NCBI GenBank assembly: GCA_016906335.1
Contig: JADEYG010000002.1
Span: 1,667,659 to 1,687,658 of the forward strand
Reading direction: 5' to 3'
Length of the DNA stretch: 20,000 nt
From: Novakomyces olei
Lineage: Eukaryota
Below are positions 1-18,670 of this stretch, in pieces. Both the position numbers and the translations under genes were made by a program. Below the pieces are notes generated by a model. That model worked only from the letters and a program-made list of their open reading frames with translations, was not told where the DNA came from and did no database searches. Numbering within the stretch: position 1 is the stretch's first letter; each line of letters begins with the position of its first letter.

Positions 1-77
1 GTTTAATCGTTCATCTCACATCCATACATAATTTTTATGCGGGATAACCGCGCAGGAAATGATAGACAAATACGTCT

Positions 78-92
78 GCGGGATATCACCGC
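78..92. promoter_or_regulatory. GCGG-N7-CCG inverted-CGG motif (putative Zn2Cys6 site) upstream of the cupin
   Basis: GCGGGATATCACCGC. A related N5 copy, GCGGGATAACCGC, is at 39-51. Confidence 0.55.
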
Positions 93-232
93 AAACGCGC
101 CACAAATAAATTGATAATAATATTAAAAGTAAAGATAAATTGTAGAAAGGAAGCATAATAAAACTAAAAAAAAAAATTAAAACTCAAATAACACTCGAGC
201 AAAGGGTAGTTTGCACGCATTTTAGCTGAATC

Positions 233-583
233 ATGGAGCATCTGCATAATTGCCTTGCTCGTCCAATTAAAGGAACATCATATTTGGCTGCTGCTGACAT
301 GAAATTTAAGCTAATTAAGCCCGGGTATTGGAGTGCAGGACTGATGGAGGATAGCCCGAACTTTAAATCTATGCTCATGAAAATTGAGCCTGGAGCTCAG
401 GGCGAAAGGCACTGGCACGCTGGGTTATACGAACATATTTATGTTCTGGATGGTGAATTTTCAGACACAGAGAACAAATACAAAAAGGGAGACTATGTCG
501 TTCGTGAACCAGGCTACCCACACCAAACTAAATCGGCGGAAGGCGCAACAATACTAGTTGTCCTCACTTCGGGACCGTTATAA
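233..583 (+). CDS. Small cupin-barrel protein, ChrR-like/cupin_7 type (116 aa)
   Basis: ATG-to-TAA ORF with cupin motif 1 (PGAQGERHWHAGLYEHIYVLDG) and motif 2 (GDYVVREPGYPH), giving a His/His/Glu/His metal-ligand pattern. Confidence 0.85.
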   Translation: MEHLHNCLARPIKGTSYLAAADMKFKLIKPGYWSAGLMEDSPNFKSMLMKIEPGAQGERHWHAGLYEHIYVLDGEFSDTENKYKKGDYVVREPGYPHQTKSAEGATILVVLTSGPL

Positions 584-1504
584 TTTCTCAACTCGGGAAA
601 TATGAAGGCGCTCCTCGGTTTACCAATAACAATATCGCGTGGGATTCTGGAGTTTCATAATCTATACCTATTTCGCATAGCATAAACTATACTCGGATAG
701 AAATAGAACAATTCGCTGCAGTATTAATCAATTCACATTCGCATTCCAAAAAGAAGTCCACGCCCAGGAGCCACTCAATTCGTCAGACTGAGAGTGTTAG
801 ATAGCACCTGATTAATGACTCGTGCTGTACCATTGCTTATCGCATCCAAATCATGATCTCCAGTTGCTATATCAGGCTTTGACGCCTATTATGCCAGTTT
901 GGGCGCCCGCTTTAGCCGCCTCCCACGCAAGATATCAGCTAAAAACAATATCACACTAAAAACCCTAGGGTGAAAAGTATGAAGATAACGCACAAGTGCA
1001 CCACAAATGCTTCATATTACTTCATAATTCTTGATACCAGCAGGCTCTCACAAGCTAAATGAGCGTGAAATCTAACGACTGGTTAATTCTTCGAATTGTA
1101 TCAATGCTAGAAATTCTGAACACTGTTTCAAATTCAACAATTACGCACGTACAAATGCAAATATGCTCTACGATGTTGGATTTGGCCTTATCCTTGATAG
1201 GGGAGTCGTTTTTGTTAAGAGGTTTGGTAGGCGATATCTGCCCCCAGTGCGTGCTTGATCTCGCTCGTTGGCAGCAAGACCACGACTACACAGTGTGGTT
1301 GTGAAATTCTGTTACCGCGTCGTATTCAATAAAGCAAAAAGTTGCACTATAAAGAAAAGCATACATACAAGTTTATAATTAATTGTCGCTAGTATGATAA
1401 AAACAATTCCTATTGCCGTCTAAATTTAAAACCAATCTAACGTTAACATAACGATACTTGGCCAATTTGAGACCATCTAAACTGCAATAAAGCTATATAG
1501 GGAA

Positions 1505-2269
1505 CTATGCCTGTGAAATCTGGCTTCGAGGCAACTTGCGTAATTCTGCGTTTACGTCCGGACCATAGCGGACACGGGTCAGACCACTGTAAAAAAATTC
1601 AGCCAGCGTGTTCGCGTCAAACACAGGCAAGCCAGTTGCGTCCTGAATAGCCAAAGCATACGGTGGCAATTGCGTGCATTCGAGAAGAATAGCACCAATG
1701 TTTCCATGCTCACGAATTAGAGTGTTGGCCAGGCCTACAAGCTCTTTAGCTCCCTCTTCATAGTCAATGGGGCCAGAGTCTTTAATTTGAGTTGAAATTG
1801 CACCTCCATAGGGGACTCCAATGACTGGCGTACTCGGATCTCCGTGGACGGCATCAAAGTGCACCTTTGAAAGAGATTCTGCACGATAAGTAATAATGCC
1901 CACTTGCTTACTGCGTGGGATAAAAGTCCTGATGAGCGGTAGTTGCTGTAAACTGCTTGTTATGACGGGAACAGATAGTGCGTCTGCCAAATATGGCTGA
2001 ATCTGTGCCAAAAATCCACATGATGTATAAATTCCGATGCATCCGTCCTTCTCCACCATTTCTTTTGCAAGAGCGACAAATTCGTTAACAAATTCTTGAT
2101 CAAACTTATTTGGGTTAACCACCGCTTTAACAGATGCATTCTTTAATGCTCTTGTGACAATAGGGAAGTCGAACGTAGCCTGAGTCCCAGTATCACCAGG
2201 GATTCTATGAATGTTGATGTTCAACGTGATTATGCCTAATGGGCCAGACGCAAAACCCGCGCGAGTCAT
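1505..2269 (-). CDS. Asp/Glu/hydantoin racemase superfamily protein (254 aa)
   Basis: Uninterrupted ORF with the two-cysteine motifs TSCGFL and LECTQLPPY, and an N-terminal LGII...RIPGD.G...TF.FP segment that I recognise from a mainly bacterial subfamily. Confidence 0.85.
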   Translation of the reverse strand: MTRAGFASGPLGIITLNINIHRIPGDTGTQATFDFPIVTRALKNASVKAVVNPNKFDQEFVNEFVALAKEMVEKDGCIGIYTSCGFLAQIQPYLADALSVPVITSSLQQLPLIRTFIPRSKQVGIITYRAESLSKVHFDAVHGDPSTPVIGVPYGGAISTQIKDSGPIDYEEGAKELVGLANTLIREHGNIGAILLECTQLPPYALAIQDATGLPVFDANTLAEFFYSGLTRVRYGPDVNAELRKLPRSQISQA

Positions 2270-2453
2270 AAGGGATTGTTATATTTGACTTTTATGGCGT
2301 GCAAAAGCTGAATGCCGAAAAACCACTTGTCAGGGCAACCAAAGTTTCGATTTAAACGACACTGGCTCTATTGAGGCAGCAATTAAGCCCACATTTATAT
2401 GATATAAAACTATGCCAAGCAGGCGTTTTATCGCAATTCTTATCATCACGAAT

Positions 2454-2467
2454 GCGGCGAATCACCG
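2454..2467. promoter_or_regulatory. GCGG-N7-CCG motif upstream of the racemase-like gene
   Basis: GCGGCGAATCACCG, about 190 bp upstream of the ATG. Nearby are GATAA sites (about 2428, 2439, 2484, 2579) and a minus-strand TATAAA at 2394-2399. Confidence 0.5.
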
Positions 2468-3019
2468 AATTCTCAGTGTGTGTGATAACAGTATAATGGG
2501 GTAGGAATTATTATTATGCTACATGAATATCGTAACAGAAACGGAAATAAATTTATGTACCATGAATATATTGAGGACTTATCGTATAACGGATAGTTCT
2601 GAGGAAAATGTCTTCTGAAAAAGCTCTGACGGAAATGCTTTTAATGAAAACATTTTGGTTTGTCGGATCTCGTAAAAAAATTACTCAATGCCGTGATTTT
2701 TTCGTCATCATTGTTGATCGGACTCTGTCCCGATGTTCATCTATATCTATTATCAGAAATCTGTCCCCAATGCTACTTGTAGTTTTATGGCTATGTCCTT
2801 GAGGTGCAGCACATGATCTCCAAACATTATATCCGCTGACGTTGTAATTATTCTGTCAGCGCACAGATGCCGCTAAGTCGTAAAAATCAGACAAAAGATG
2901 TATGATGGGATTCACAAAGTGGAAAGCTATATTGCGAATTCCACACTTTTTTAGCAAAAATGCTTGTTATTCTACGAACCACAAATACTTTAACGTTGCT
3001 AATTCGAACTGTATATCGG

Positions 3020-4450
3020 CTAAAGTCGAGATGGTATTTCATTTAACACTTTTTCTCTTGGCTGATTGTGCAAAATGCGACTGGTAGAAAGAGGCTCCCC
3101 AATTTTGTTTTTGACTTTTTCTGCCTGCGTGTAGGATCGCCACTTGTATTTTTTTGTGAAAATTGTCTCCTTTCCCTCCAGCACATCAACAACATGCCGA
3201 CCAACCAGTGGGAAAAAAGAAAAGCCCCGACCGGAGTCGCCGGTAGCCACAAGTAGACCATGAAAATTCGGAACCCAGTCGATAAGAAATTCATCGTCCA
3301 TAGAGTCTGCATACCAGCAAAGTCGTGTTTTGACAAGCTTCACATCCGGCGAACAAAGCTCCGGCAGATTATCACGTAAAAAATTGTGGATGTAAGAAAG
3401 GCTTTTATCAGGAATCTCTTTGATGGCGGGAACAGTAGATTGTGTACACGGCGTCGACACCAAGTTACCGTTACTTCCGTTTTGTGGGTTGAGCCATTTT
3501 ATCCCCTTGTACCCAATTTTGACACGGCCGTCTTTTGTACGAGGGAATCCATAAAGTGCACCAGTTTCGCCTTCCCGGTAGCGATAAGTAAAGGGCGGGA
3601 AGTTGTCTGAGCTGAACCGATTCCAAAGATCTCTTCGTGATTTGGGGAGCTGGAAAATGCAAACTGAGCCACCAGTTGCTTCCACACACTCATTCATGCT
3701 CACAACAGATGGCGTCCAGGCCCCCAGGCAACAAATAATGGTTGATGCCTGATGGCACTGGCCATCAGCTGTCCGGATGCCCACTATTTGACGACGGCCG
3801 CGACTATCGGAAGCGGCATCAAACAAAAACTCCGCGAATTCTCCCCTTTTAGAACCCATAATTGTACGTGCTCCGCCCTTGCGGACGAGATACAGGGCAA
3901 ATGTGCAAGAATCGCTTGCCATTGAGACGCCGCCCGACAAATCTAGCAATCCATTTTGTGGGAAATTGCGCTTTCGGCGAGTTAGTGGATCCGTTTTCAT
4001 TGGGTTAATGCCGTCTGCCAAAGCACGGCTAAGGTCATCCTTGCTGGAAAGATCGTATACGTTTGAGCGTTTGTGGGACAAAATATCCAAATCTTCGGGG
4101 GGCAGATCTTTGTCGCTGATAATGGCCGTTCCACACTCAACCAAAAGCTTTGTATCCTGCGTCAGAGGCGACGGTAGGTCATGATATTTAGGAATGTCGC
4201 TATTCCACTTTCTCCAAGCGTTCAAACACTGCATACCAAAGTCGCGATAGATTTCTTGTGTCTGACTTTCAGCACGGAAAAGCTTATTATAGTCGCTTGA
4301 GGCACTATCTGCACCCTTGTCAAAATCATAATGGTCGAATCGATCAAAGATCGTAACGTTCTTGTAGCCACGCTCGATCAAATGCAATGCTGTACTAAGC
4401 CCAAACACGCCGGCTCCAAGAATAATGATAGACGTATCTTTACCCTCCAT
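3020..4450 (-). CDS. FAD-dependent oxidoreductase, sarcosine/L-pipecolate/fructosyl-amino-acid oxidase (MSOX/MTOX) family, about 476 aa
   Basis: Rossmann motif IILGAGVFGLSTA, plus ASSDYNKLFR, RLCWYAD (covalent-FAD Cys) and ATGDSG..F..FP. The start is placed at the ATG at 4450 (MEGKDT), not the upstream GTG of the ORF track. TATAAA lies on the minus strand at 4531-4536. Confidence 0.9.
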   Translation of the reverse strand: MEGKDTSIIILGAGVFGLSTALHLIERGYKNVTIFDRFDHYDFDKGADSASSDYNKLFRAESQTQEIYRDFGMQCLNAWRKWNSDIPKYHDLPSPLTQDTKLLVECGTAIISDKDLPPEDLDILSHKRSNVYDLSSKDDLSRALADGINPMKTDPLTRRKRNFPQNGLLDLSGGVSMASDSCTFALYLVRKGGARTIMGSKRGEFAEFLFDAASDSRGRRQIVGIRTADGQCHQASTIICCLGAWTPSVVSMNECVEATGGSVCIFQLPKSRRDLWNRFSSDNFPPFTYRYREGETGALYGFPRTKDGRVKIGYKGIKWLNPQNGSNGNLVSTPCTQSTVPAIKEIPDKSLSYIHNFLRDNLPELCSPDVKLVKTRLCWYADSMDDEFLIDWVPNFHGLLVATGDSGRGFSFFPLVGRHVVDVLEGKETIFTKKYKWRSYTQAEKVKNKIGEPLSTSRILHNQPREKVLNEIPSRL

Positions 4451-4626
4451 AAGGAAGAATTTATCCGAGCGCACGCCTTCTAAAGTCGATGTAAACTGTT
4501 TGTCTTGACAAGCATGAAGTCGTACATCTTTTTATAATGGTTAGAATATAATGCTAAAATACAAATGCTTACAAGTTTAGACTACATATCTTATCGGAGA
4601 TTTTGTGTGTTGCGTGGGCCATTTGC

Positions 4627-4641
4627 GCGGGATAATACCGC
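4627..4641. promoter_or_regulatory. GCGG-N7-CCG motif upstream of the oxidase gene
   Basis: GCGGGATAATACCGC, about 180 bp upstream of the ATG at 4450. Confidence 0.55.
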
Positions 4642-4810
4642 AATTTGTATGTGGCGAAATTAACCACTTAGCAATACAGCTGCTATGTATACGTTAAACT
4701 TATTAAATTATAAATTTAGATATTTATGAAACACAGTTATATTTTTCAATTTGTGCACAAGAATTCTATCCGTTAAAATGCTATTTAAATGCGTATGCTT
4801 ATGCTATAAT

Positions 4811-4975
4811 TTATGCTTTTCTCTTCTTTCCATCTTTTCCGTCGCCTCCTGAACCTTGACTGGGAGAAAGCTCGAGCTTCGCAATGCTCTCCTTAATGAT
4901 GTTTCCCATTTCGTCGTATAGGTCTTCTCCTTTTCCCTCAAGATATGTAGAAAGCACGTATAACACTTTCTCAAA
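4811..4975 (-). pseudogene. Relic C-terminus resembling the neighbouring FunK1 kinase tail
   Basis: Manual translation FEKVLYVLSTYLEGKGEDLYDEMGNIIKESIAKLELSPSQGSGGDGKDGKKRKA* aligns with the kinase segment MEKLRIALF...EQGEELYDKILNILSTEVERLE..RQGAQGGG. Confidence 0.55.
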
Positions 4976-4982
4976 ACGAGAG

Positions 4983-5500
4983 CCAAATTACGAATATGTC
5001 TAGTCGGAGCTATCGCCACGAGCATATCGGTCAAACACAATTCCGTAAACTATTCCAATGCCTTCCCAGAATTGCGAGACATTGGCCCGTGTTTATATTC
5101 AATGTAGGTATTCTGTCGTCAGCTCCGTTTATACAAATATCACCGGCGACATTGAGGCACTTTATACTTCCTCCGTGACCTGGTCTGAGTTTACGGCTCC
5201 CGGCGACTGTTCAGATTCCAGACGCGGAGTCCACCTTGCTAGGAGCTCGGAATAGCCATAATTTAATCCTTCATATTGACTCAAAGCACTTGGGATGTAA
5301 GTGCATACATCACATGGCGGCTGTTTCCTGTATCAAGGTTCCAGGCACCAATGTTTTGCCTCGCGCTATGCGCATAAGAATCGGGTATGAGATAAAAGTT
5401 GCCTTCCTGGTCTGAGCATCATGAATCAGCCAGTCCACCTGATCAGTGGCAGGTCAAAACGATGGACGGATGCCGGCACTCGAAAGCAACCCGCTCTTAC
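4983..5500 (-). pseudogene. Degenerate WD40-repeat gene fragment (Cdc4/Fbw7-like F-box/WD40 propeller)
   Basis: Manual translation across stops and frameshifts: IGAWNLDTGNSRHVMYALTSQVL*VNMKD*IMAIPSS*QGGLRVWNLNS / GHGGSIKCLNVAGDICINGADDR..LNINTGQCLAILG.H / IVYGIVFD..LVA..SSD*TIRIW. This gives three to four GH...WN/WD-type repeats. The 5' limit is uncertain. Confidence 0.7.
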
Positions 5501-5822
5501 ATCGTTTCTTTCGTCTAAAGCCTAATTCCAGCTAAAACGCCATTCCAACAAATAATGCTGTATCAGTCACGACTTCCCCTCACTGTCGACATATTTATTG
5601 CCACCTATCGTCGCCATGTCACCGCCACTGCCACAGCCATCTCTATATTACTCCAGCGCTCATACAGTCCCTTCGCCACTGGTACTGCCAGGCGACGGAG
5701 TTGGAATCGCCAGCAGTAACTGGAATTGTGGAGGCAGGGACTCCGTCAAAATATATTACTTGATTTCTGTCCGTTCAATACGCGAGGCTCTTGATTGCAC
5801 ATGATGGGTTGTTTCGCTATTG

Positions 5823-5860
5823 GTGAATTAATGGAATCAATAGTGAATTAATGGAATCAA
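5823..5860. repeat. 18-bp direct duplication GTGAATTAATGGAATCAA
   Basis: Exact copies at 5823-5840 and 5843-5860, downstream of the kinase stop. Confidence 0.9.
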
Positions 5861-5984
5861 AATAAAAACGCCAACAATATGCTAAACAATGCAATTTAAA
5901 TATGCCCAATAATATGCCATAACTATGCCAGACTTTAAAGCCTGGATGAAAATGAAAGGGTATTATATATCATTGGCCCCCGGC

Positions 5985-8698
5985 CTACTTGACCCTTCTT
6001 GCCTTTTTCTTCGGGACTCCCTGGCCTTCATGAATTTCTTCGTCCTCCTGACCATCCTGATCCCCATGGTCTCTACGGTTTCCATATTCTCTCTGGACTT
6101 TATTGCTGCCATAGGCTTCGTGGCCCTTCTGGCTCCCTCGCTCTCGTAACCTCAGTGACCTAAGTGACCTCCGTGGCCCCTCTGGCTTCCCTGCCTCCTG
6201 GCCTCTCTGACTGACCGGATTGACCTGGCCTCCCTGGAGTTCACCGCCTCCTTGGGCCCCCTGTCGTTGCAGATTTTCCAGCCGCTCCACTTCGGTGCTC
6301 AATATATTGAGAATTTTGTCATACAATTCTTCACCTTGTTCGATACGTACGCCTCTTGAATCTTTCATGAACAATGCAATGCGAAGCTTTTCCATGCATC
6401 CCATCAAAGGCTTATGGTCATTAGTGAAATTTTCCGACATTTCGCGCCTAAAAATAACGGGATTATCAACGATTTTTGATTTATACGCCGAGACCTTTGA
6501 CATACTGGCATAGTCCCAATCGTCATACGGAGAATTCCGATTAATAGTCTGTCCATTTCGAAAATAGTGAGTAAAAATCCAGTAAGCCACCCAAAAGTGC
6601 GACTCAATGTCATGCATCATGGTATGATCTTCTCCGTCTAGTAAAGGTATCGCCATAAACGGCCTCGTGCCTGTTCTCTCCATCGCGCCTGACAGACCAG
6701 CTTGGCTGATCCTGATCGCAAACTCAAGATCAATAAGAAATGCCCGCCGAGACCCTGGATTTTCAGACCCCTCATTCATCATCAAGTTCCCGATCGAAAT
6801 GTCCCGGTGCAGAATATCATTCTTCACAAGCGACCGGTGGCCCTCAAGACATCCCATTATCCCTTTCAGTAGCTCTATGTGTGAACTTGCCTTGTACAAT
6901 GGCTTCCCGTAGTCCAACACAACGACTCGTCGATGGACTCGGTTTTTGATTTTCGCATCCAAAGAATCAATCTGCTTTGCTGGCGACGACTCTCCGGACC
7001 TCTCCTCCGCATTCTCCTCTATATTCCATAATGGAGATTTCGCTGACCGAGTACTGCTTCGCCGCATGTCAAGTGCTGAAGTGCCCGATCCGGTCGATCC
7101 TCTCGACCATCTTGCTCCAAGATCCGGAATTGCCTTTTTTAGAGCTCCGGTCATGTCTAATCCATTCCGCACATTGCTCATAAGATCGTCTTCCTTGCCA
7201 TCAATGTGAACCACCTCATGGTGATAATATCGCGAAATATTCTCGACACCACGAGTACCCGCTAGCTTAAGCAGCTCCCCTTCTTCCCTTCGCTCCGGCT
7301 CCTGCCACGAGTCTTTGATCACTCTGACTGCGCTCTTATCCCCTTCTCGGTGCGCCAGCCATACCGTCGTGCCTCTGCACGCAATTCCGCTCGAAGTCTT
7401 CAACACTTTGTCAATTATAAGTCGCTCACGCGTCCGCCCTCGTTTAATATCGATATATCTATCTTCCTCTCTACTGACAATTGTCGGATCGTAACCCAAC
7501 TCTTTCTCTCCCATCGTAAGGAAAAACAGCATCACGTAGACTATCAGGCCTGTTGCTTTGTTAATGTCGAATGCTTTTGATGCTATCGCCCCACATCGAT
7601 CATATTTCCACACCCTCATCGACGAGTCGCAAAGCGTAAATCCCAAAACATATCGACGGTTATCCTGCGCTCGAAATATTTCCTTTATATACTTTGCAAG
7701 GCCAAGCCATGCTTGTGCAGGGCTATCGGCCTTACGACTGCTTTTTAGCTCTCCCACAACCAAGACGTTGTTCCATTGTTTATCAGCATTTCGCTTTATG
7801 AAGAAAATGTCAGGTTTGCGTGCGAACTTTCCAGGGAGAGGTTTATTCGCCGCAGACATTGTAGTTCGCCGCACCTCTGTGCCTTTAATTCGCTTGTAAA
7901 TGTTGCTTATTTGCGTTACAAAACTCTTGAGCCAATCTAGCACCGCTGCCTCCTTCGCTGATTTAGGCCAATTCTTCAATTTACCGTTTTTGAAGAGTAA
8001 GTTTTCTTGGTTTGCCTCTTTTACCACTCTCGCCGATAGTTTATTGAGCGATTTTTTCCGAGTGGACAAAATATCCTCCACCTCAAAGTTGATATAGAAA
8101 AATTTAAGTTCAGCTTTGATTTGCTCTTCGACCTCTATTAATCGTTCGCTAGAATTGTACGCAATAGAATTAATATTGAGTGGCGTCCCAGGAGCTTGTT
8201 TTGGTGGCTCTTCCTTCGTTTGGCTTTGAGCTTGCCTTAATCGCTCGACCTTCCTTTGGCTTTCCGCTACAACATCGTTCAGTTTCTCCCAAATCTCTAA
8301 GTCGTTATCATGTTTAAATGCAGCCGTCAGGACTGGGGCAATGTCATGATAGTAAAGCCGGATATCAGAGGCAATGTCGTTAACTAGTTCACTTATAGCA
8401 GGTTGAACATCCTCCGCCACAATACTCAACTGCAGAAGCAAGATTCTAGCCAGCCTAAAATAGTCTATAGATGTTAGGCATAAAGAAAAATCGACGAGAC
8501 CCAATCGTTACCTTTTTCATGGAGCAAAAGAGCATTATACTGTCCTGAAGAAGGGTCTCTATAGCCTGCTTTGTCAATCCGACGTAGATTTTCGTAAAAG
8601 TAATATAAATGCGGTGTAAAGGGATTATCGTTCAGCATTCGTCGAATTCCATCGTTTATCTCGATCGAACCGGGCTCTGGCCTTAAAGGTTCCGCCAT
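5985..8698 (-). CDS. Fungal-specific protein kinase (FunK1/Pkinase_fungal family), two exons 8698-8512 and 8464-5985, 888 aa
   Basis: Motifs CRGTTVW, VIKDSW, HRDISIGN, LIDLEFA, RTGTRPFMA and HDIESHFW. A 47-nt intron joins the 8474-8713 ORF in frame (G|AC = Asp, then YFRL). The protein ends in the NLS-like PKKKARRVK. Confidence 0.88.
8465..8511 (-). other. 47-nt spliceosomal intron of the kinase gene
   Basis: GTAACG donor, CTAAC branch point and TAG acceptor. Removing it restores the reading frame. Confidence 0.85.
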
Positions 8699-8753
8699 CG
8701 CCGCTGCGGTCAAGGTAGGAACGCGACTCGAACCAATGAATGCATGTTGGATA

Positions 8754-9094
8754 TGAAAGGGCTTAATCCCAACATGGTGTTATGATAACCCAACATTTGG
8801 CTATCGCCAGTTTATCGCCTTGTAGCCATTTAAACCACTAACCTAAAGGGATTCTTATAGAAAATGACCTTCAAAGGGACTGGAGGATGCATTTGCTCGA
8901 CCACCCGTGGTCTATAAATAGGGACCCATTCGTTCATAGTTCTACGTAGTTTAATATTAATCTTAGTGCTTGAAATCAAACAGCCTCAGGACGCCGTTAT
9001 CCTATAGCTCCGCCTATTATTATAACAGCGCGCTGCTATCTTGGGATAGTTAGGTTACTTAAATTATATATATATATTGGTTTGAGTCCTAACA
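8754..9094 (+). repeat. Element A 5' LTR (341 bp)
   Basis: TGAAAGG...CCTAACA with TATAAATA at 8913-8920. No differences from the 3' copy seen by eye. Confidence 0.97.
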
Positions 9095-9101
9095 GGTAAT
9101 T

Positions 9102-9116
9102 TTAATATTAAACTAC
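9102..9116 (+). other. Element A putative self-priming primer-binding site
   Basis: TTAATATTAAACTAC is the exact reverse complement of LTR positions 8946-8960. There is no tRNA-type TGG PBS. Confidence 0.75.
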
Positions 9117-9219
9117 CCGTAGTCTACAAAGAGACTGCTACGTGAAAAAACACCTCTTTACAGAAATTCCGGTCTTTACTAATTACGGTAATCTCCATTA
9201 ACGGAAATAATTTACAACA

Positions 9220-12200
9220 ATGTCTGGAGCTAGTGGAAGAGCGATTAAGAACATAGCTCCCGAGTTGAGAAGTCCAAGGTCGACGAGAAGAGTCTCTTCG
9301 AAAGGAGAAGGTGAAGTTGAAGGTCTAGCAGAAACACCGAGTCTTCAGAAACTAGAGGGAGACGATGATGACGATGAAAACCCATTATCCCAAGATGTTC
9401 GGGAACTGAAACAAACATTAAAGGAGCAGAGTGAAGCTATCATTGCTCTTACTCAGCTTATGAACGAATTAACGCAAGGGCGCAATATTCAAAGCGAAGG
9501 CACGAAACACGTACCGGCCAGAGGAGAAGATACAGTGAGTGAGGAGATGCTCAGTGCGACCGATAGGGCCAGTGTGCGAGAGTTAGCAGCCAGTTTAGCT
9601 GAACAGCAGCTCAAATTTACCGGGCAGTACGGAGAATCTGTGTCAAAGTTTTTGAGACTAGTAAGAATGACAGCGAGAACAATGGGTGTCAGAGAGGATC
9701 TAATCCCCCGCGCGGCCTGGAGCAGGTTGAAGGGAATGGCAGAAACATGGCTACTGTCTACCTACGAGAGACATCCAATTATTTTATCAAATATGCCAGA
9801 ATTCGAGGCGGCATTGAAAGAGGACTTCATAGAGCCTGACACTCGCTATGAAAGCGAAAAGGAGCTGCATCGGCTCATTGCAAGCCGATTACCAATGCGT
9901 GAATATACAGCACGCTTTATGGATCTGATTCGCGAGTGTGATTTGGACGATGGTCCACAATTGGCAGAAACTTATCGTGCAGGATTGCAACCATTCGTTG
10001 CACGAACTCTGAACAAAGGCTTCACAAACTTGCAAGAAATTGTGGCGGCAGCAAGTCCCTATGAGCACTTTATGGGAAACAATTACCAGTCAAATACGAA
10101 AAGGCAGACACCTAGCTATCGACGGAATGAGTACACAAGCTACAGAACAGAGCGCCCCAGAGAAGTTAGGGGATATCAAGCGAATGATAAAGGAAATAAT
10201 TATTCACAGACAGACCGTTCTAAAACAATGAATCCGGCGATAACGTGCTATCAATGCGGTGAAAAAGGACACATTGCAACGACATGTCCCGAAAGGAAAA
10301 TAAAATTGCTCCAAGCTAGTCAGGACAAGCCTTCTGGACTGGGCAAAGAAGATGATCTGACCAAGGAAGAAGAAGCGAAAATCATGAATATGGACATGGA
10401 AAACATTACGAAAATAGAGCAGCTCGAAACTATTGATATCACGTTGGATACAAACGGACATCCCACGTATGCGGCCGTCATAGATACAGGGGCTACGGTC
10501 AATGCTATATCAAAAAAGGTGGCATATACAACGGGCTTGGATATTATAGAAGATCCAACTATATGGATTTCTAATATAGCGGGTTACAAAACCAAAGGCA
10601 AGTACCTAAACTTAAGGTTTAACGTTAATGATGCGAACTTTACCGCACGTTTCTACGTCATTGACATGGGACCGGAAATTATATTGGGTATCGGATGGGT
10701 GAAAAGGTATCCAAAGTGCCTAGAGAAGATTGCAAATGGGCAGATAAATATGGTCGTTTCCGAACTTAAGGACGTTCCACTACAGTACCATGATCTAGCA
10801 AAAGTATTTTCAGAAACCGAAGCAAACATGCTCCCGGCCCGGCGACCTTATGATCATAAAATCGAATTGGAGCCAGAGAATGCTATTCCCCCTCACATGC
10901 CAATCTATCGTTTGTCAAGCGGTGAGATGGAAGCACTTCGAAATTACATAAACGAGAATTTAAAGCGAGGTTTTATTAGAGAATCGAAGTCGCCAGCAGG
11001 GGCTCCCATACGGTTTGTGAAGAAGAAATCTGGAGATCTAAGGTTATGTATTGATTACAGACGTTTAAACGACATGACAAAAAAGAACCGAATGACATTA
11101 CCCCTAATCGCCGATCTTCTAGATCAACTGAAAGAGGCAACTATCTTCACGACGCTGGATCTTCGATCAGCGTATTACCAGATCAGAATTGCCGAGGGAG
11201 ATGAATGGAAAACTGCGTTTCGCAGTCGGTATGGACATTATGAATATTTGGTTATGCCATTCGGGTTAACTAATGCCCCGGCTACATTTCAGCAAGCCAT
11301 AAACAGCGTACTATCGGATACAATTGACGTCTATACGATTGTATACTTAGATGACATATTAATTTATTCTAAGACAAAAGCCGAACACGAAAAACACGTA
11401 CGCAATGTCCTCACACGACTCTATGATAACAAGTTTTATGTCAATCCTACGAAGTCCAGGTTTAACCAAACCGAAGTGGAGTTCTTAGGCCACATAGTCT
11501 CGCCAGGACTTATCAAAATGGACCCATCAAAGGTGAACGCAATTCACAATTGGGCTACTCCAACAACAGTAAAACAAGTTCAATCGTTTCTCGGATTTAC
11601 AAATTATTACAGACGATTTATTGCAGGCTTCAGTAGTCTGGCTAAGCCTCTGCGAGAAGTAATTAAGGAACCATCAAGATTCAAATGGCTTACGGAACAT
11701 CAAGAAACGTTCGACAAAATAAAAGACGCATTTTCGAAAAGTATAGTTCAAAGACATTTTAAGCCAAACAATGAAACCGTCGTACAGACCGACGCTTCGA
11801 ATACAACGGTCGCTGGAGCACTACTCCAGAAGGAAAATAAGCGTTGGGAGCCTATCGCATTCTTCAGCAGATCATTAAAACCTGCTGAAATAAATTACAC
11901 AACGGGCGAAAAAGAACTATTGGCAATTATCGAGTGCCTTAAGCAGTGGAGACACTATCTGTTGACACAATCTTTTGAAGTCAAAACGGATCATGCAAAT
12001 CTTCTACATCGAAAGGAACCCGCAATTCTTAAACCTCGCCACGCACGATGGGCCGAGTTCTTAAGCGACTACGATTTTAAAGTCACTCACGTTAAAGGAA
12101 ACAAAAATCACGTGGACCAGTTAACAAGGACGGTAAAATCAATTGCAATACTCGAAACCACGCAAGAAGTTCAGGTATTTAAACAAAATCTTGCAGAGCA

Positions 12201-13551
12201 AGGGAACGCGGATGCTCATGACGGGAAAATACATTTAAATAAAAACAACACCGTCGCGACTCAGAGTATCATTCAAATGTGTCACGATCTGCCTCGCGCA
12301 GGACACTACGGTGGTCGGAAAACGTACGAGTTAGTCAAGAGACACTATATTTGGAACGGAATGAAACATGATATACAATCTTACGTAAAAAATTGCAAAG
12401 TCTGCGCATTGGCAAAGCCGAGACGAAGCCTTCCTCCGGCTCCGCTTTTGCCATTACCAATTCCAGAAAGAATTGGCCAAAGCTATTCATTAGACATCGT
12501 CTCAGGCCTTCCAGACTCAGGCAATTCGAACGCGATACTAGTGGTAGTCGAAAGACTTTCCAAGTTTTCTAGATTTCTACCGATTCAGTACACTATCTCA
12601 ACTCGAGCGATAATACTGCTCTTAGAAGAAGAGGTTTTCCGACTAACAGGTTTTCCTGAAAACCTCATATCGGATCGAGACGTACGATTCGACAATCAAT
12701 TATGGAAAAGATTACTCGCACGGCACAACATACACCCAATGCTAACAACGGCATACCACCCGCAAGGTGATGGCCAAAGCGAGCGGACAATTCAATCTAT
12801 TGTACATTATTTGCGCCTAAACTGTAATCAAAACTCGAGTAACTGGGCTCAATATTTGGCAGAAGGAGAATTTGCTTATAATAATGCTACGCATTCGGCA
12901 ACGGGAATATCTCCGTATCAACTGCTATGGCAATTTCAACCGGAGCCACCTTTTGACGTCCTACCACCAAACACTACACCGACACCGACCCATGAGGCGA
13001 TCCTCAAAGTTCGACAACGACTCAGGAATGCCGCCGAGGCATCGAAGCGATTCTACGACAGAAGACGGAAGCCTACAGAAAACATTCAGCCGGGCGACAA
13101 AGTTCTGATACGCGCAAATCCTATCATCTACAGAAACAAATTGAACTCGTTATATACCGGACCTTACACCGTTCTTAGAAATATTAACGAATTCACACAC
13201 GTCATACGAATCAATGACAACGACGTCACTCTACATGGGTCTCGAGTTTTACGGGCTAATGACTATCACACGGAACCGAACGTGTCAAACACGCCGAACG
13301 AATCATATCATTATTACTTTCCGCCGGTTATTCAACGAACAAATACAAGAGGATCAATGATAAAATTCCCAGGACGACCACCCAGGTATATCACCCACCG
13401 CATCAGCGAAGGATACGCCACGATTCAAAGCTCTGGGACAGAGCACAGAGGGGAGGACCAGTGTCAGGAGCTGACATGTGCCTGGCACAGAAGTTGCACT
13501 CGTGCAATTAGTGTGCAGGCATTAGTTTTTAGTATAGAATATTCTAGATAG
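9220..13551 (+). CDS. Element A single-frame Gag-PR-RT-RNaseH-IN polyprotein; the last 29 aa come from the element B LTR
   Basis: Zn knuckle CYQCGEKGHIATTC, protease AVIDTGA, RT YLDDIL, RNase H TDAS...EKELLA, integrase HDLPRAGH...CKVC, and GPY motif YTGPY. No recognisable chromodomain. Confidence 0.95.
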   Translation: MSGASGRAIKNIAPELRSPRSTRRVSSKGEGEVEGLAETPSLQKLEGDDDDDENPLSQDVRELKQTLKEQSEAIIALTQLMNELTQGRNIQSEGTKHVPARGEDTVSEEMLSATDRASVRELAASLAEQQLKFTGQYGESVSKFLRLVRMTARTMGVREDLIPRAAWSRLKGMAETWLLSTYERHPIILSNMPEFEAALKEDFIEPDTRYESEKELHRLIASRLPMREYTARFMDLIRECDLDDGPQLAETYRAGLQPFVARTLNKGFTNLQEIVAAASPYEHFMGNNYQSNTKRQTPSYRRNEYTSYRTERPREVRGYQANDKGNNYSQTDRSKTMNPAITCYQCGEKGHIATTCPERKIKLLQASQDKPSGLGKEDDLTKEEEAKIMNMDMENITKIEQLETIDITLDTNGHPTYAAVIDTGATVNAISKKVAYTTGLDIIEDPTIWISNIAGYKTKGKYLNLRFNVNDANFTARFYVIDMGPEIILGIGWVKRYPKCLEKIANGQINMVVSELKDVPLQYHDLAKVFSETEANMLPARRPYDHKIELEPENAIPPHMPIYRLSSGEMEALRNYINENLKRGFIRESKSPAGAPIRFVKKKSGDLRLCIDYRRLNDMTKKNRMTLPLIADLLDQLKEATIFTTLDLRSAYYQIRIAEGDEWKTAFRSRYGHYEYLVMPFGLTNAPATFQQAINSVLSDTIDVYTIVYLDDILIYSKTKAEHEKHVRNVLTRLYDNKFYVNPTKSRFNQTEVEFLGHIVSPGLIKMDPSKVNAIHNWATPTTVKQVQSFLGFTNYYRRFIAGFSSLAKPLREVIKEPSRFKWLTEHQETFDKIKDAFSKSIVQRHFKPNNETVVQTDASNTTVAGALLQKENKRWEPIAFFSRSLKPAEINYTTGEKELLAIIECLKQWRHYLLTQSFEVKTDHANLLHRKEPAILKPRHARWAEFLSDYDFKVTHVKGNKNHVDQLTRTVKSIAILETTQEVQVFKQNLAEQGNADAHDGKIHLNKNNTVATQSIIQMCHDLPRAGHYGGRKTYELVKRHYIWNGMKHDIQSYVKNCKVCALAKPRRSLPPAPLLPLPIPERIGQSYSLDIVSGLPDSGNSNAILVVVERLSKFSRFLPIQYTISTRAIILLLEEEVFRLTGFPENLISDRDVRFDNQLWKRLLARHNIHPMLTTAYHPQGDGQSERTIQSIVHYLRLNCNQNSSNWAQYLAEGEFAYNNATHSATGISPYQLLWQFQPEPPFDVLPPNTTPTPTHEAILKVRQRLRNAAEASKRFYDRRRKPTENIQPGDKVLIRANPIIYRNKLNSLYTGPYTVLRNINEFTHVIRINDNDVTLHGSRVLRANDYHTEPNVSNTPNESYHYYFPPVIQRTNTRGSMIKFPGRPPRYITHRISEGYATIQSSGTEHRGEDQCQELTCAWHRSCTRAISVQALVFSIEYSR
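13447..13457 (+). other. Element A polypurine tract, now separated from its 3' LTR
   Basis: AGAGGGGAGGA. The reconstructed pre-insertion junction is AGAGGGGAGGACCAGCA|TGAAAGG. Confidence 0.8.
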
Positions 13552-13758
13552 TTTTGCTTAGTAATTTAGAACGCTAAGCGGAAGTATAAGTAGGGCCTTC
13601 TGGTATCTACTTTACTTACGCTTAGCCAACTAGTGAATATAACTGTTGTGCAATTATTCTATTGTATTCTCCTTTTTCCCGCTAGCCGTTACGATAAGCG
13701 GCGTGCAATTAAGCAGTTGTACTCAGGCGTCGAGGTTCGCCTGTGACACGCACTGACA
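13462..13758 (+). repeat. Element B 5' LTR (297 bp)
   Basis: 6-bp terminal inverted repeat and TATAAGTA at 13585-13592. No differences from the 3' copy seen by eye. Confidence 0.97.
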
Positions 13759-13760
13759 GT

Positions 13761-13769
13761 GCTAAGCGT
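13761..13769 (+). other. Element B putative self-priming primer-binding site
   Basis: GCTAAGCGT, 2 nt after the LTR, is the reverse complement of ACGCTTAGC at 13618-13626. Confidence 0.7.
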
Positions 13770-13810
13770 CCGTTTTAGTGGGACTAGGAAGAACATTTAC
13801 GGTGGGAACG

Positions 13811-14716
13811 ATGGACCCCGCGAGTATGGAGGAGTTACAAAAGTTTTGCTCACAAGTGACCGACAGGCTGAAGTTCTTGGAACAAAAGAACACAGCGCTG
13901 ACGGAGAGACTAGCAAGAGTGACTAGTGATGAGAACAGCACACGTGTGTCTGCCGGCCGCGAGCCGAAGATGGCGCCTCCGCCATTATTTTCCGGAGAGC
14001 GAGGGAAACTGAATGAATTTATCATGCAGACGAAAATGATAACCGATGTGCAGAGAGAAAGATACACGACCGAGAGACAAAAGGTTCTGTTTGCAGCATC
14101 GTACTTGCGTGGGGCCGCTTTTCGTTGGTGGGAGCCGCATATTTTGCGAGAGGATGGAGAACTACTCGACGATTTTTCGCTGTTTTGCAACGAGCTACAA
14201 CGCATGTTCGGAGATAGAGACATGAAGCGAACGGCACAGAGACAGCTTAGGCAGTTGAAACAAAAAAGCTCAGCATCGCATTATGCAGCTGAATTTGAAA
14301 GACTGAGCGCCTTTCTTGCGTGGAACGACGAGGCTCTAGCAGCGCAGTATTATGAGGGCCTTAAGGACAGTGTCAAGGATGAACTGGCACGAGCAGAATC
14401 GCCTAGAGATTTGAAAGCCCTTGTCGATGTGAGCATTAGAATCGACAACAGGCTGTTTGAGAGAAACCGCGACCGAGCCAGAATCTACAGAAGAGAACCA
14501 TCGCCGGGAACAAGAGAGATGCCAATGGAAATCGACGTTATGAGAACACCGACATTGTCAAGAGACGGCGAGAGAAAGTTCAAGCACGAAAAGCCTGTCG
14601 AGTGCTATAGATGCCACAAAAAGGGGCATATAGCAAAGCATTGCCGCGAAGAGACGCGGACTGGAACAACGAAGAAATTTGAAACAAGGGACGACTCGGA
14701 AAAAGCAAACGCCTAA
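13811..14716 (+). CDS. gag: Element B Gag (301 aa from first ATG)
   Basis: Sushi/PEG10-like capsid (PPLFSGER, LRGAAFRWW, LKQKSSASHYAAEF), PMEID motif and Zn knuckle CYRCHKKGHIAKHC. Confidence 0.93.
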   Translation: MDPASMEELQKFCSQVTDRLKFLEQKNTALTERLARVTSDENSTRVSAGREPKMAPPPLFSGERGKLNEFIMQTKMITDVQRERYTTERQKVLFAASYLRGAAFRWWEPHILREDGELLDDFSLFCNELQRMFGDRDMKRTAQRQLRQLKQKSSASHYAAEFERLSAFLAWNDEALAAQYYEGLKDSVKDELARAESPRDLKALVDVSIRIDNRLFERNRDRARIYRREPSPGTREMPMEIDVMRTPTLSRDGERKFKHEKPVECYRCHKKGHIAKHCREETRTGTTKKFETRDDSEKANA

Positions 14717-14724
14717 TCCAGGAG

Positions 14725-17700
14725 ATGGCTGCATTGGGCACAAATGACGAGAAACCCATCAGAAAGGACAACAAACAAATTGAGGTGACAGCCGAACTGT
14801 GCGGAATAAGTTTCAGAGCATTGGTGGACTCTGGTGCACACCTGAACTTTATTAACCCGCGGGTTGTCAATAAACTAAACATCGACATGAAGCAAATCAA
14901 AGAGCCAATCTTTGTACAGGTGGTGGACGGACGGCCATTGCCAGGAGGACCTGTCATACTTACAACGGGAGACCTTTCTTTGATAATAGACGACCGTCTT
15001 ATGCCTACAAAATTCTACATGGCCGATATCGGGCGTCATGATATCATTCTTGGTATACAGTGGTTGCACGACAACAACCCTTCGATTGATTGGAGAAAAG
15101 GAGCAATGTCGTTCAAAGAGGACGAAAGTACAGAGGAGATGTTGGAAATAAATCTTACGGAAACAAGAGAAAAGCAAGACGATATCCCGGAAGAATACAA
15201 GGACTACAAGGAAATATTTGCTAAAGAAAAGGCAGATTCGCTTCCTGAACATGGATTATACGACCACGAGATAAGGCTGGTCGAAGGAGCCCAGATACCC
15301 TTTGGGCCAATTTACAGCATTAGCCACGAAGAACAAGAAGAACTGAGAGAATACATTGAAAAGAATCTTGCGAGAGGATTCATACGCAGGTCTAAATCAC
15401 CTGCTGGGGCCCCGATACTATTCGTTAAAAAGAAGGACGGAAGTCTGAGACTTTGCGTGGATTATCGCCAATTGAATGCGATTACAATCAAAAACAAGTA
15501 TCCGTTACCAAGAATCGATGACCTAATCGACAAGATCGCAGGATCTCAGTATTTTACAAAACTCGATTTGAGAGGAGCGTATAACTTGGTGAGGATAAAG
15601 CGTGGCGACGAGTGGAAAACAGCGTTTCGGACGCGTTTCGGACACTTTGAGTATTTAGTAATGCCCTTTGGATTGACTAATGCGCCGGCCACCTTCCAGG
15701 ATTTGATGAACGATGTGTTCCGCGATATCCTAGACCGAAAGGTCCTAGTTTACCTGGACGATGTTCTTATTTACTCAAAGTCATTGGAGGAACATACCGA
15801 AGACGTCAAAGAAGTGCTGGGACGACTTCAAAGGCGAGGACTTTGTGTCAAGGGAGAAAAGTGTGAGTTTCACAAAGAACAGGTTGAATTTTTGGGCTAT
15901 GCAATATCGACTAAGGGAGTTAGTATGAGCCAAGATAAAACAGAAACAATCCGCAAATGGCCGAAGTTGAAATCAATCCACGACGTACAGAGTTTCTTGG
16001 GACTTTGTAACTATTACAGACGCTTCATACAAGGATTCTCGAAGCTAGCACGACCACTCACGGCTCTTTTATCAAAGAACAAACCATTTGAATGGACGAC
16101 TGTGCAAGAAGATGCGTTTCGTACACTAAAATTGCAATTTGAAAAGAACGTTCTATTGGACCACTACGACCCCGAGAAGCAATGCATCATCGAGACAGAT
16201 GCTTCCGATTTTGCGCTGGGAGCAGTGCTCACGCAAATTACTCCTGAAGGACTCAAGCCAATATCATTTATCAGCCGAAAGCTGAGCATGGCCGAAATAA
16301 ACTATGATATTCATGATAAAGAGCTGCTAGCCATTATCTGGGCCCTTAGAACATGGAGACACTACGTACAAGGGCAAAAACAGCCAACATTGATCTATAC
16401 GGACCACAAGAATTTAATCCCCTTTACTACCACGAAACAGCTCACTAGGCGGCAAGCCCGATGGTCGGAACTGCTTGCCGACTATGACATTAATATTACA
16501 TACCGCAAGGGGCAATTTAACGGTGCAGCCGACGCACTTAGCCGGAGACCAGATTTGAACGACTTATCTACAGAACCATACCGAAAACACCAGGAGCAGA
16601 TATTACTAAAACCCGAGATATTCGTGAATCAGTTGGAAGCAGCAACAAGCACTGTACCCACCGAAGAAGAGAGAAAAAGGATATTGAGCGACCACCACGA
16701 TCACCCGCTGGCGGGACACTTCGGATCGTCGCGAACATTGGAGTTAATCAAACGCCACTATGAATGGCCAGGCCTACGAAAGGACGTGGAGGATTATATA
16801 CAGGGGTGCCCCACCTGCAAGAGAAATAAAATACCGAGAAGATCACCGTCAGGAGAATTGCATTCCCTGCAAATACCAGAAAAACCGTGGGAATCAGTGT
16901 CTATTGATTTCATAGTGCAGCTACCGAAATCGAAGAACCAGGATTCTATTTTAGTGGTTGTGGACCGTTTGACAAAAATGTGCCATTTGATCCCATGTGA
17001 TACTAGGATCACAGCACAGGGAACCGCACAGTTGTTTATACAGCACGTGTTTAGGTACCACGGACTGCCCAAAGAAATTATTTCCGACAGAGACCCGAGG
17101 TTTGTAAGTCATTTTTGGAAGGGTCTGACTACAGGACTCGGAATCAAGCTATGCCAGTCAACTAGTCACCACCCGCAGACCAACGGACAAACGGAACGAA
17201 CGAATCAGTCCTTGGAACAGTACTTACGATGCTACGCCAACTACAACCAGGACAATTGGGTCGACCTGTTGCCATTTGCAGAATTTGCCTTAAATAATGC
17301 GGTGAACGCCAGTACAAAATTGTCCCCATTTTATGCAAATTACGGCTTCCATCCCACAACGTTTACAGTGGGCAACAGGGAAACACAAACCCCCGCTGCC
17401 GACAACTGTTTGAAGAATTGGAACGAGGTCTTTAAAGGAATCCGAGAAGCGCTGGACACAGCCAACAAACGTATGGCAATTTACTACAATCGAAAGAGAC
17501 GAATCGGACGAGAATATAGCGTTGGAGATTTTGTTTGGATACAACCTAAATACATCAATAGCGACCGACCGAGTCCCAAGCTCGATCACAAAAGAATTGG
17601 GCCATTTAAGATTGTTGAAAGAATTGGCGTGTCAGCTTATCGCGTCGACTTACCTACGAATATCCAAATACATAATGTCTTCAACGAATCACAATTAGAA

Positions 17701-18184: not shown

Positions 18185-18271
<87 letters not shown>

Positions 18272-18663: not shown

Positions 18664-18670
18664 ACCAGCA

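Follow-up and report, generated by a model that had tools for sequence, protein, structure and literature searches.

Yeast catabolic clusters, such as GAL, DAL and similar systems, are served by a pathway-specific regulator, and the DAL genes are additionally subject to GATA-type nitrogen control. CGG triplets are spaced by 10 bp in the sites of Put3 and by 6 bp in those of Ppr1. The rule for zinc-cluster activators, as given in one source (PMC10954478), is an inverted CGG-Nx-CCG site whose spacing is specific to the factor, with the N11 site of Gal4 serving as an example. A further point of comparison is provided by the AcuK/AcuM (Rds2/Ert1-type) site of Aspergillus, CCGN7CCG, which is described in another source (PMC12719309) as a direct repeat associated with gluconeogenic genes.

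The locus studied here is a trio of adjacent intronless genes within a 20 kb stretch of DNA, hereafter called the window. These genes encode a cupin (positions 233-583, forward strand), a racemase-family protein (1505-2269, reverse strand) and an FAD oxidase (3020-4450, reverse strand). The window contains exactly three copies of GCGG-N6-ACCG, whose core is CGG-N7-CCG. Each gene has one of them upstream, and all three inverted-CGG sites named in the original prediction are present. The distance between the nearest motif base and the ATG ranges from 141 to 185 bp, which confines the sites to a 44-nt band. Site 1, GCGGGATATCACCGC (78-92), precedes the cupin ATG (233, forward strand) by 141 nt; its 14-mer GCGGGATATCACCG covers 78-91, and the C at base 92 makes the site a near-palindromic GCGG-N7-CCGC. 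Site 2, GCGGCGAATCACCG (2454-2467), stands 185 nt ahead of the racemase-family ATG (2269, reverse strand) and is the most divergent of the three, having no GATA core and being followed by A rather than C (CCGA versus CCGC). Site 3, GCGGGATAATACCGC (4627-4641), is found 177 nt before the oxidase ATG (4450, reverse strand) and is made up of the 14-mer GCGGGATAATACCG (4627-4640) and the adjoining C at 4641. The coordinates first proposed were accurate for the second and third sites (2454-2467 and 4627-4640), but not for the first (78-92), whose 14-mer stops at 91. In the consensus of the three sites, KGCGG-N6-ACCGM, the CGG/CCG triplets never vary, nor does one flanking base on each side, and the asymmetry of the flanks gives the motif an orientation relative to the cupin gene that is opposite to its orientation relative to the other two. 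An extra related dyad, GCGGGATAACCGC (CGG-N5-CCG), was read from the sequence at 39-51 in the cupin promoter. Its half-sites are those of the N7 sites, its spacer is shorter, and it was left out of the statistics.

The 7-bp spacing differs from that of the sites for Gal4 (N11), Put3 (N10) and Ppr1 (N6), whereas the presence of two CGG triplets, inverted and separated by a constant distance, some 140-190 bp before the ATG, is as in zinc-cluster activator sites. The zinc-cluster signature originally proposed agrees with the architecture laid out in PMC10954478. The AcuK/AcuM site has the same seven-base triplet spacing, but its triplets are direct and those of the window are inverted; none of the three promoters contains the direct form CCG-N7-CCG, whose three matches in the window all fall within coding regions. 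A text search of the literature for an inverted CGG-N7-CCG site found no paper, and variant spellings returned direct-repeat forms only. The locus is also like GAL/DAL-type clusters in that adjacent, apparently functionally linked genes are accompanied by a common upstream element and GATA-type sites, whereas the combination of genes is different and a regulator gene was not seen. Specifically, no Zn2Cys6 domain is encoded within the 20 kb window.

We tentatively favour the explanation that the trio is a small accessory nitrogen-catabolic unit co-regulated by one Zn2Cys6-type activator acting through the dyads, and we consider its chances to be slightly short of even. The three promoters together hold seven HGATAR sites versus 2.54 expected, a number reached in seven of 1000 shuffles, in line with the several GATAA sites pointed out at the outset. 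Three of these are found in the cupin promoter on the forward strand (TGATAG at 60-65, TGATAA at 112-117 and AGATAA at 133-138), three in the racemase-family promoter (2428-2433, 2440-2445 and 2483-2488) and one in the oxidase promoter on the reverse strand (CGATAA, 4591-4596). The same enrichment lends weight to an unlikely alternative, namely that the motif is a site for a sequence-specific factor of a different class or a composite, for example a GATA-type nitrogen regulator site flanked by GC-rich DNA, and that co-regulation would be achieved by general nitrogen control instead of a pathway-specific zinc-cluster activator. Furthermore, GGGATA(A/T) is central in three of the four dyads (39-51, 78-92 and 4627-4641). 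However, the racemase-side site has kept both CGG triplets and their spacing despite its missing GATA core, and invariant triplets with one flank base per side are the pattern of zinc-cluster sites in PMC10954478.

The trio is situated about 15-20 kb from a chromosome end. The window terminates in telomere repeats (19865-20000, forward strand) made of 10-nt units, GGGTTAGTTA / GGGTTAGTCA, which are of the TTAGTYAGGG type and correspond to the Yarrowia-clade-type repeats of a yeast, and the locus was therefore rightly called subtelomeric. Retroelements and kinase-gene remnants surround the trio. Contig identity and summed depth reveal the start of a repeated (multi-copy) subtelomeric block (4619-5984) beside the oxidase promoter. 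Specifically, a single-copy contig spans 1-4648, and a second contig is identical over 4624-4653 and then, as far as 4792, shows 13 differing letters and 7 gap letters. Towards 5000 the summed depth climbs about 2x, 4x and 6x, and 1-4509 is represented by one contig only at single-copy depth. On the reverse strand, 4807-4987 carries a weak protein-kinase-like remnant, which tblastn matches weakly to the neighbouring kinase (E 0.045). Site 3 is positioned 9 nt inside this block, which begins near 4619 and has a second genomic copy, and its independence as a third observation is weakened as a result. A duplicated copy of the motif exists away from the oxidase gene and may belong to a repeat.

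It is quite unlikely that the motif is simply a general or subtelomere-associated element that is common in the genome and carries no pathway meaning, for instance the edge of a repeat family or the site of an abundant regulatory or boundary factor. Such an element would fit the oxidase-side copy, given that its block has at least one further copy and that copy number grows rightward, and it would fit a locus amid retroelements and kinase-gene remnants at this distance from the telomere. However, the other two or three sites reside in the single-contig, single-copy-depth DNA (1-4509), and the exact pattern is found nowhere else in the 20 kb, including the kinase promoter and the rest of the repeat-rich 15 kb. 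The motif is likewise absent from both LTRs, and comparison of these with the promoters gave no match longer than 13 nt among the matches listed. Moreover, the boundary near 4619 is equally well explained by a segmental duplication that broke in the oxidase promoter.

Taken alone, the core CGG-N7-CCG shows no enrichment across the window (4 matches versus 2.31 expected, with 40 of 200 shuffles reaching 4), and the one match beyond the three promoter sites, at 13954, falls within a retroelement ORF. For the extended form GCGG-N6-ACCG, a pattern picked after seeing the data, the count is 3 versus 0.34 expected, and 2 of 200 shuffles reach 3. Correction for post hoc pattern choice is provided by a de novo dyad test, in which every k1-N(0-15)-k2 dyad common to the three 232-bp promoters is scored by composition and compared with dinucleotide shuffles, which do not model real promoter composition. 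By this measure, 12 of 300 shuffles scored as high as the 3+3 core; for the 4+3 dyad the figure was 1 of 1500, and for the 4+4 dyad it was 0 of 1500. The significance of the motif rests on the flanking G and A, which were chosen from the data, and within the window the sharing of the motif exceeds chance. When the promoters are aligned with one another, the best match is the 17-nt motif itself (78-94 versus 4627-4643) and nothing longer is common to them, so the sharing does not reflect promoter duplication. The least probable account, which we regard as very doubtful, is coincidence, whereby three functionless GC-rich matches of eight positions were found post hoc in short AT-rich promoters: the pattern was read off the data, its 3+3 core is unremarkable alone, and there are three promoters without independent replication in relatives, but the choice-corrected search, the narrow band of ATG distances and the fourth related site in the cupin promoter all speak against it.

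All three ORFs are full length compared to their homologues, and the gene families originally assigned prove right at family level by Pfam, NCBIfam and solved relatives. The oxidase (476 aa; PF01266, 3.3e-24) belongs to the MSOX / fructosyl-amine / pipecolate-oxidase family and ends in -SRL, a putative PTS1 signal. Its best solved relatives are fructosyl-amine oxidases (1.6e-29), and its best homologues are fungal proteins of the 'sarcosine/L-pipecolate/saccharopine oxidase' type. It has the DAO fold, as do the fungal PIPOX / fructosyl-amine oxidase / saccharopine oxidase (MSOX) enzymes, whereas its identity to any protein found is at most 42%, the value for these homologues. Scores fall far under the NCBIfam cut-offs for N-methyltryptophan oxidase (79 versus 257) and monomeric sarcosine oxidase (75 versus 480). 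The substrates of this family are broad and include sarcosine, pipecolate, N-methyl amino acids and both L- and D-proline, and the family is expanded in Brettanomyces, according to PMC7052964.

The racemase-family protein (254 aa; PF01177, 8.8e-09) is of the PRK07475 type within the Asp/Glu/hydantoin racemase superfamily, which it resembles in Pfam match, fold and both thiol positions. It scores 226.7 bits against NCBIfam NF005679 (cut-off 231), and its two conserved cysteines, C84 and C198, show no variation across 25 sequences. The structure model (pLDDT 92.8) folds like arylmalonate decarboxylase, glutamate racemase and hydantoin racemase (TM about 0.6, 14-22% identity). PRK07475/NF005679 is an uncharacterised subfamily that NCBI names 'hypothetical protein', and a sequence search for a solved structure within it gave 0 phmmer matches, the best profile match being Pyrococcus hydantoin racemase (1.6e-06).

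Prokaryotic members of this subfamily often adjoin DAO-type amine oxidases, or Liv-type amino-acid ABC transporters and a GntR regulator. The survey covered 160 mostly prokaryotic loci that carry a PRK07475 homologue (80 genome contigs and 80 metagenome contigs). DAO-family HSPs of 180 aa or more occur in the flanks of 32 of them, and in 15 a DAO-family amine oxidase lies no more than 600 bp away on the same strand. Ten such neighbours were scanned, of which three score as AmaA-type pipecolate-oxidase-like (369-460 bits, under the cut-off of 600), four score highest as SoxB-like, and the remaining three match other models best (glycine oxidase ThiO, TIGR03364). This recurrent adjacency supports a racemase-oxidase pair. 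The trio's synteny was found at none of the 160 loci, and the window's own oxidase type stands beside a racemase homologue in 0 of 160.

The cupin is a monocupin of 116 aa (Pfam Cupin_7, 2.1e-13; Cupin_2, 1.3e-10) with both cupin motifs and an intact 3His-1Glu metal site, whose residues H60, H62, E67 and H97 do not vary among 28 sequences. Its structure model (pLDDT 95) is closest to the solved structures of the TM1459 Mn-cupin and KdgF (TM 0.73-0.78). Searches found no close relative (best 35% identity), and none of the 160 PRK07475 loci includes a cupin relative. Only adjacency and the motif give this protein its putative place in the pathway. The regulon reading of the original prediction is supported in part, by the motif, the GATA sites, the gene families and the telomere, and is weakened by a cupin lacking close relatives and by the location of site 3 in a duplicated block.

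If the trio is indeed an accessory nitrogen-catabolic unit, one pathway-specific Zn2Cys6 activator is predicted to bind each dyad as a homodimer and, when the substrate is present, would switch on all three genes together, with the enriched GATA sites adding general nitrogen control. The two-cysteine protein of the racemase superfamily would interconvert stereoisomers of an amino-acid-like compound, and the MSOX/pipecolate-oxidase-type flavoenzyme, which is probably peroxisomal, would oxidise a secondary-amine C-N bond with release of H2O2. The small metal cupin may then act on the product or a side-product. That the substrate is an N-substituted or D-form amino acid, as suggested earlier, would fit an oxidase from a secondary-amine oxidase family, and would fit the bacterial PRK07475 homologues that recur beside pipecolate-oxidase-like or SoxB-like DAO genes. 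Accessory genes of this kind would probably serve the use of an imino acid or N-alkyl amino acid (of the pipecolate, proline or sarcosine type), possibly in its D-form.

The three adjacent genes at the left end of the window, which code for a cupin, a racemase-family protein and a DAO-fold oxidase, are each preceded by one copy of an inverted CGG dyad of the form GCGG-N6-ACCG. The dyad lies at 78-91 in the cupin promoter (GCGGGATATCACCG, with a C at base 92 that extends it to GCGG-N7-CCGC), at 2454-2467 in the promoter of the racemase-family gene (GCGGCGAATCACCG) and at 4627-4640 in that of the oxidase gene (GCGGGATAATACCG, then C). The orientation is inverted (CGG...CCG) at all three promoter sites and the spacing is N7 at all three, and the cupin promoter carries one additional, related dyad with a 5-nt spacer (N5) at 39-51 (GCGGGATAACCGC). 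All three sites listed in the original prediction are in the sequence, although the end assigned to the first, base 92, is one position too far for a 14-mer. The similar distance from each ATG that had been claimed also holds, since the nearest motif base lies 141 nt from the start codon of the cupin gene, 185 nt from that of the racemase-family gene and 177 nt from that of the oxidase gene.

The best-supported interpretation of the dyad is that it serves as a shared upstream activating element, putatively bound by one zinc-cluster factor. Proteins of this type recognize CGG triplets in inverted, direct or everted arrangement with factor-specific spacing, as set out in PMC10954478, and we favour a zinc-cluster factor because inverted triplets with such spacing are a described mode of recognition. 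The dyads have the same form as the inverted sites of Gal4 type, and the spacing here is N7. In contrast, the N7 site known for AcuK/AcuM has its triplets in direct repeat (PMC12719309), and direct-repeat sites of AcuK/AcuM type are absent from the three promoters. Literature searches with exact strings for an inverted CGG-N7-CCG site found none, and variant spellings returned direct-repeat forms only.

The extended pattern GCGG-N6-ACCG, which was taken from the data, occurs three times in the window against 0.34 expected, and 2 of 200 shuffles reach that number. A de novo search, which corrects for the choice of pattern, considered every dyad of two words separated by 0-15 nt, on both strands, that is common to all three 232-bp stretches upstream of the ATGs; dyads were scored by composition, and the best score was compared with those from dinucleotide-preserving shuffles. 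The score of the 3+3 core was attained by 12 of 300 shuffled sets, that of the 4+3 dyad by 1 of 1500 and that of the 4+4 dyad by none of 1500. We consider the observation of a shared motif confirmed, with the proviso that shuffled sequence mimics real promoters imperfectly and that only three promoters exist.

Other readings of the dyad can be weighed against that of a zinc-cluster site. One is that it represents a GATA-centred site or some other site bound by a different kind of protein. GATA sites act in general nitrogen control, and their presence in these promoters, also noted earlier, is borne out by seven HGATAR sites (2.54 expected) even when the GGATA inside the dyads is excluded, a number reached in 7 of 1000 shuffles. 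Regulators of the zinc-cluster class are often encoded close to their targets; the Zn2Cys6 pattern CX2CX6CX5-12CX2CX6-8C is absent from all six frames of the window, and the inverted CGG triplets themselves are the feature that points to a zinc-cluster protein.

A second alternative is that the dyad is a general or repeat-associated element, and here the oxidase promoter deserves particular attention. Two public DNA runs, and no listed RNA run, contain the stretch. In one of them, which is possibly the source, a 51,009-nt contig covers 1-4648 and extends about 46 kb leftward, and two parallel contigs run rightward from 4624. One of these reproduces the window sequence exactly. The other matches it without change as far as 4653, and between there and 4792 it has 13 differing letters and 7 gap letters (about 92% alike). 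Each parallel contig has approximately single-copy depth, and the summed depth is about 2x, rising to about 4x and 6x by 5000, while no second contig was found for 1-4509 in the same run. The second contig and the rising depth indicate that a multi-copy subtelomeric block starts near 4619, which places the oxidase-side motif (4627-4640) just inside it. The site may have been copied by a segmental duplication with its breakpoint in the oxidase promoter, or it may be part of the repeat itself, and this ambiguity is the chief reservation about treating the three sites as independent. The second DNA run, from another study, shows no difference from the window in 191-4648 and is therefore uninformative on conservation; two further runs of that study gave no match to the stretch, which is not proof of absence. 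The longest similarity between promoters is a 17-nt alignment that corresponds to the motif itself, and no match of more than 13 nt to either LTR was present among the matches listed. These alignments give no support to an origin of the motif by promoter duplication or, among the matches listed, from an LTR. Coincidence, the weakest of the alternatives, would suit the bare core CGG-N7-CCG, which is not enriched (4 matches in the window, the fourth within a retroelement open reading frame, against 2.31 expected, with at least 4 in 40 of 200 shuffles), and fits poorly with the longer dyads of the de novo search.

The description of the locus as subtelomeric proves correct, given that telomere repeats at 19865-20000 end the window and thereby place the three genes about 15-20 kb from the chromosome end. 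These repeats consist of 10-nt GGGTTAGTTA units together with GGGTTAGTCA and 9-nt GGGTTATCA variants. PMC6746865 reports a 10-bp TTNNNNAGGG telomere unit from the Yarrowia clade, and we regard the TTNNNNAGGG-type repeat of the window as a hint to a lineage of that clade and nothing more. The multi-copy block includes an intact fungal-type protein kinase gene (5985-7859, minus strand; PF17667, 3.6e-127) as well as a kinase remnant that adjoins the oxidase promoter (4807-4987, minus strand) and weakly resembles the C-terminus of that kinase (E 0.045). Two Ty3/gypsy-type elements, apparently nested, occupy 8753-18969. One is bounded by LTRs of 300 nt at 8753-9052 and 18670-18969, and the other by LTRs of 297 nt at 13462-13758 and 18367-18663; both pairs are 100% identical, and we therefore consider the insertions recent. 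The inner element codes for a Pol with a chromodomain, and between it and its 3' LTR lies a long (ATA)n microsatellite that gives way to a poly-A run (18186-18296). Near the end, a 114-codon open frame on the minus strand (19527-19868) runs directly into the telomere repeats. It matches no Pfam family, and we take it to resemble the C-terminus of a Ty1/copia-type Pol; if so, a new telomere would have capped a truncated element.

The cupin, racemase and flavin oxidase assignments of the original prediction agree with family profiles (Cupin_7, PF01177 and PF01266). The racemase-family gene (1505-2269, minus strand, ATG at 2269) codes for a 254-aa protein of the Asp/Glu racemase superfamily and PRK07475 type. 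It scores 35.9 bits against PF01177 (cut-off 31) and narrowly misses the cut-off of NF005679 (PRK07475), a model built for prokaryotes, with 226.7 bits versus 231 over 229 of 246 profile positions. Among 25 sequences, C84 (in SCGF) and C198 (in LEC) are invariant, and motif context suggests that they form the catalytic pair, one per domain. The structural model (pLDDT 92.8) is nearest in fold to arylmalonate decarboxylase, glutamate racemase and hydantoin racemase (Foldseek probability 1.00, 14-22% identity), and a sequence search of solved structures found none, the best profile match being 1.6e-06. Its best homologues, at 43% identity, come from yeasts (Wickerhamomyces, Pichia and Ogataea) and Pezizomycotina, and bacterial proteins are almost as close. 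The protein ends in -SQA, which is not a tripeptide of the peroxisomal-targeting type.

The oxidase gene (3020-4450, minus strand, ATG at 4450) codes for a 476-aa DAO-fold flavoenzyme (PF01266, 86.5 bits) whose N-terminus carries GAGVFG, matching the GxGxxG of a DAO-type FAD domain. Among solved structures it is closest to fungal fructosyl-amine/peptide oxidases (1.6e-29, with 3djd matched over residues 4-438), followed by monomeric sarcosine oxidase and N-methyltryptophan oxidase. Its best homologues are fungal, are at most 42% identical and are named sarcosine, L-pipecolate or L-saccharopine oxidase at source. By sequence, then, the protein belongs to the MSOX / fructosyl-amine / pipecolate oxidase family. 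Alignment to 3djd places LCWYAD opposite ICWCAD, such that one of the two candidate cysteines for covalent flavin attachment is kept. The protein ends in -SRL (3020-3031), presumably a PTS1-type signal for the peroxisome, where an oxidase that forms H2O2 would be expected. Three metagenomic oxidase homologues of 710-723 aa (P0138, P0142 and P0144) have N-terminal extensions of about 250 aa with fragmentary FAD-family matches only; as candidates for a Rosetta-stone fusion of racemase and oxidase they were rejected, because they contain no racemase domain.

The cupin gene (233-583, plus strand) codes for a 116-aa protein that matches Cupin_7 (2.1e-13) and Cupin_2 (1.3e-10). Both cupin motifs are recovered by pattern search, G(x)5HxH(x)3-4E(x)6G as motif 1 and, as motif 2, the one that carries the third His. 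Across 28 aligned sequences, H60, H62, E67 and H97 do not vary. The model (pLDDT 95) fits TM1459 and KdgF, small metal cupins of unknown or diverse function, and its beta-barrel fold together with the motifs identifies the predicted product as a metal-binding monocupin. We rejected assignment as a ChrR anti-sigma factor (TIGR02451): the score is 41 bits against a cut-off of 124.5, only the cupin part matches (profile positions 112-189 of 216) and the protein is just 116 aa long. Among 1.84 billion representatives the best match has 35% identity and an E value of 2e-19, with 1e-10 attained by 21 proteins. Relatives in the representative library and the Atlas are distant and mostly bacterial or metagenomic; the sole cluster with named members among ten looked up is bacterial, as are the nearest Atlas clusters. 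Judged by these searches, the cupin is nearly an orphan. Its C-terminus, -GPL, is not of the peroxisomal-targeting type.

The genomic company of the racemase-family protein elsewhere was surveyed in 80 prokaryotic genome loci and 80 metagenome loci carrying a PRK07475 homologue, 139 of which have at least 1.5 kb on one side. Neither the cupin of the window nor any of 21 of its nearest relatives occurs in the 160 loci, with tblastn of the cupin giving no real match in either set. By tblastn, the window's own type of oxidase is likewise found in none, apart from two chance-level matches of 32-38 aa to the FAD-binding start. When two bacterial DAO neighbours served as queries, a DAO-family gene was detected in the flanks of 32 of the 160 loci, and in 15 it shares the strand of the racemase homologue and is no more than 600 bp away from it (L007, L012, L020, L021, L026, L036, L044, L049, L082, L090, L095, L099, L105, L107 and L126). 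These neighbours belong to other subfamilies than the window's oxidase. Among 10 of them scanned, 3 are AmaA L-pipecolate-oxidase-like (369-460 bits, below the cut-off of 600), 4 match best as SoxB-like (sarcosine-oxidase beta subunit) and for 3 the top-scoring model is a different one (glycine oxidase ThiO, TIGR03364). A tally of eight neighbours from the 15 close pairs gives two that are AmaA-like, five that match best as SoxB-like and one that matches best as ThiO. In other loci the racemase homologue is accompanied by a GntR regulator and a Liv-type amino-acid ABC transporter. These counts lead us to regard a racemase-superfamily enzyme beside a secondary-amine flavin oxidase as a recurrent pair, the enrichment being a judgement on raw counts and not a statistic. 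The 15 close pairs look like an uncharacterized two-gene module, present for example in Synergistaceae and Desulfobacterales.

On the preferred reading, one zinc-cluster factor would bind the common upstream element of the three genes, and general nitrogen control would act through the enriched GATA sites. The two-thiol enzyme may epimerize or racemize an amino-acid-like substrate, the PIPOX-like oxidase would then oxidize the secondary-amine C-N bond, and the cupin would carry out a metal-dependent step. The oxidase family and the bacterial neighbours are the reasons for proposing imino or N-alkyl amino acids, possibly D-forms, as the substrate class; PIPOX-type enzymes have a wide substrate range, according to PMC7052964. 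In its most far-reaching form, which is a long shot, the three genes of a Yarrowia-clade-type yeast would constitute a pathway not described before, serving an imino or N-alkyl amino acid, perhaps in its D-form, and proceeding from an uncharacterized PRK07475 epimerase through a peroxisomal PIPOX-like oxidase to a metal cupin. Epimerase and oxidase would form an old module also found as operons in amino-acid-fermenting bacteria, and control would lie with a zinc-cluster factor of undescribed inverted CGG-N7-CCG specificity.

A text search of the literature did not find this gene combination. We regard the locus as a candidate for a small catabolic cluster of fungal type whose pathway-specific site is putative, rather than as a system of a new kind, and it would leave the understanding of such clusters unchanged; a shared zinc-cluster site combined with GATA control is already familiar among them. 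If the scheme is true, however, it would provide the first functional handle on the PRK07475 branch, which has neither a solved structure nor a known reaction. It would also add a zinc-cluster site of new spacing, and would be a further case in which accessory genes for nitrogen catabolism are kept at the ends of chromosomes.
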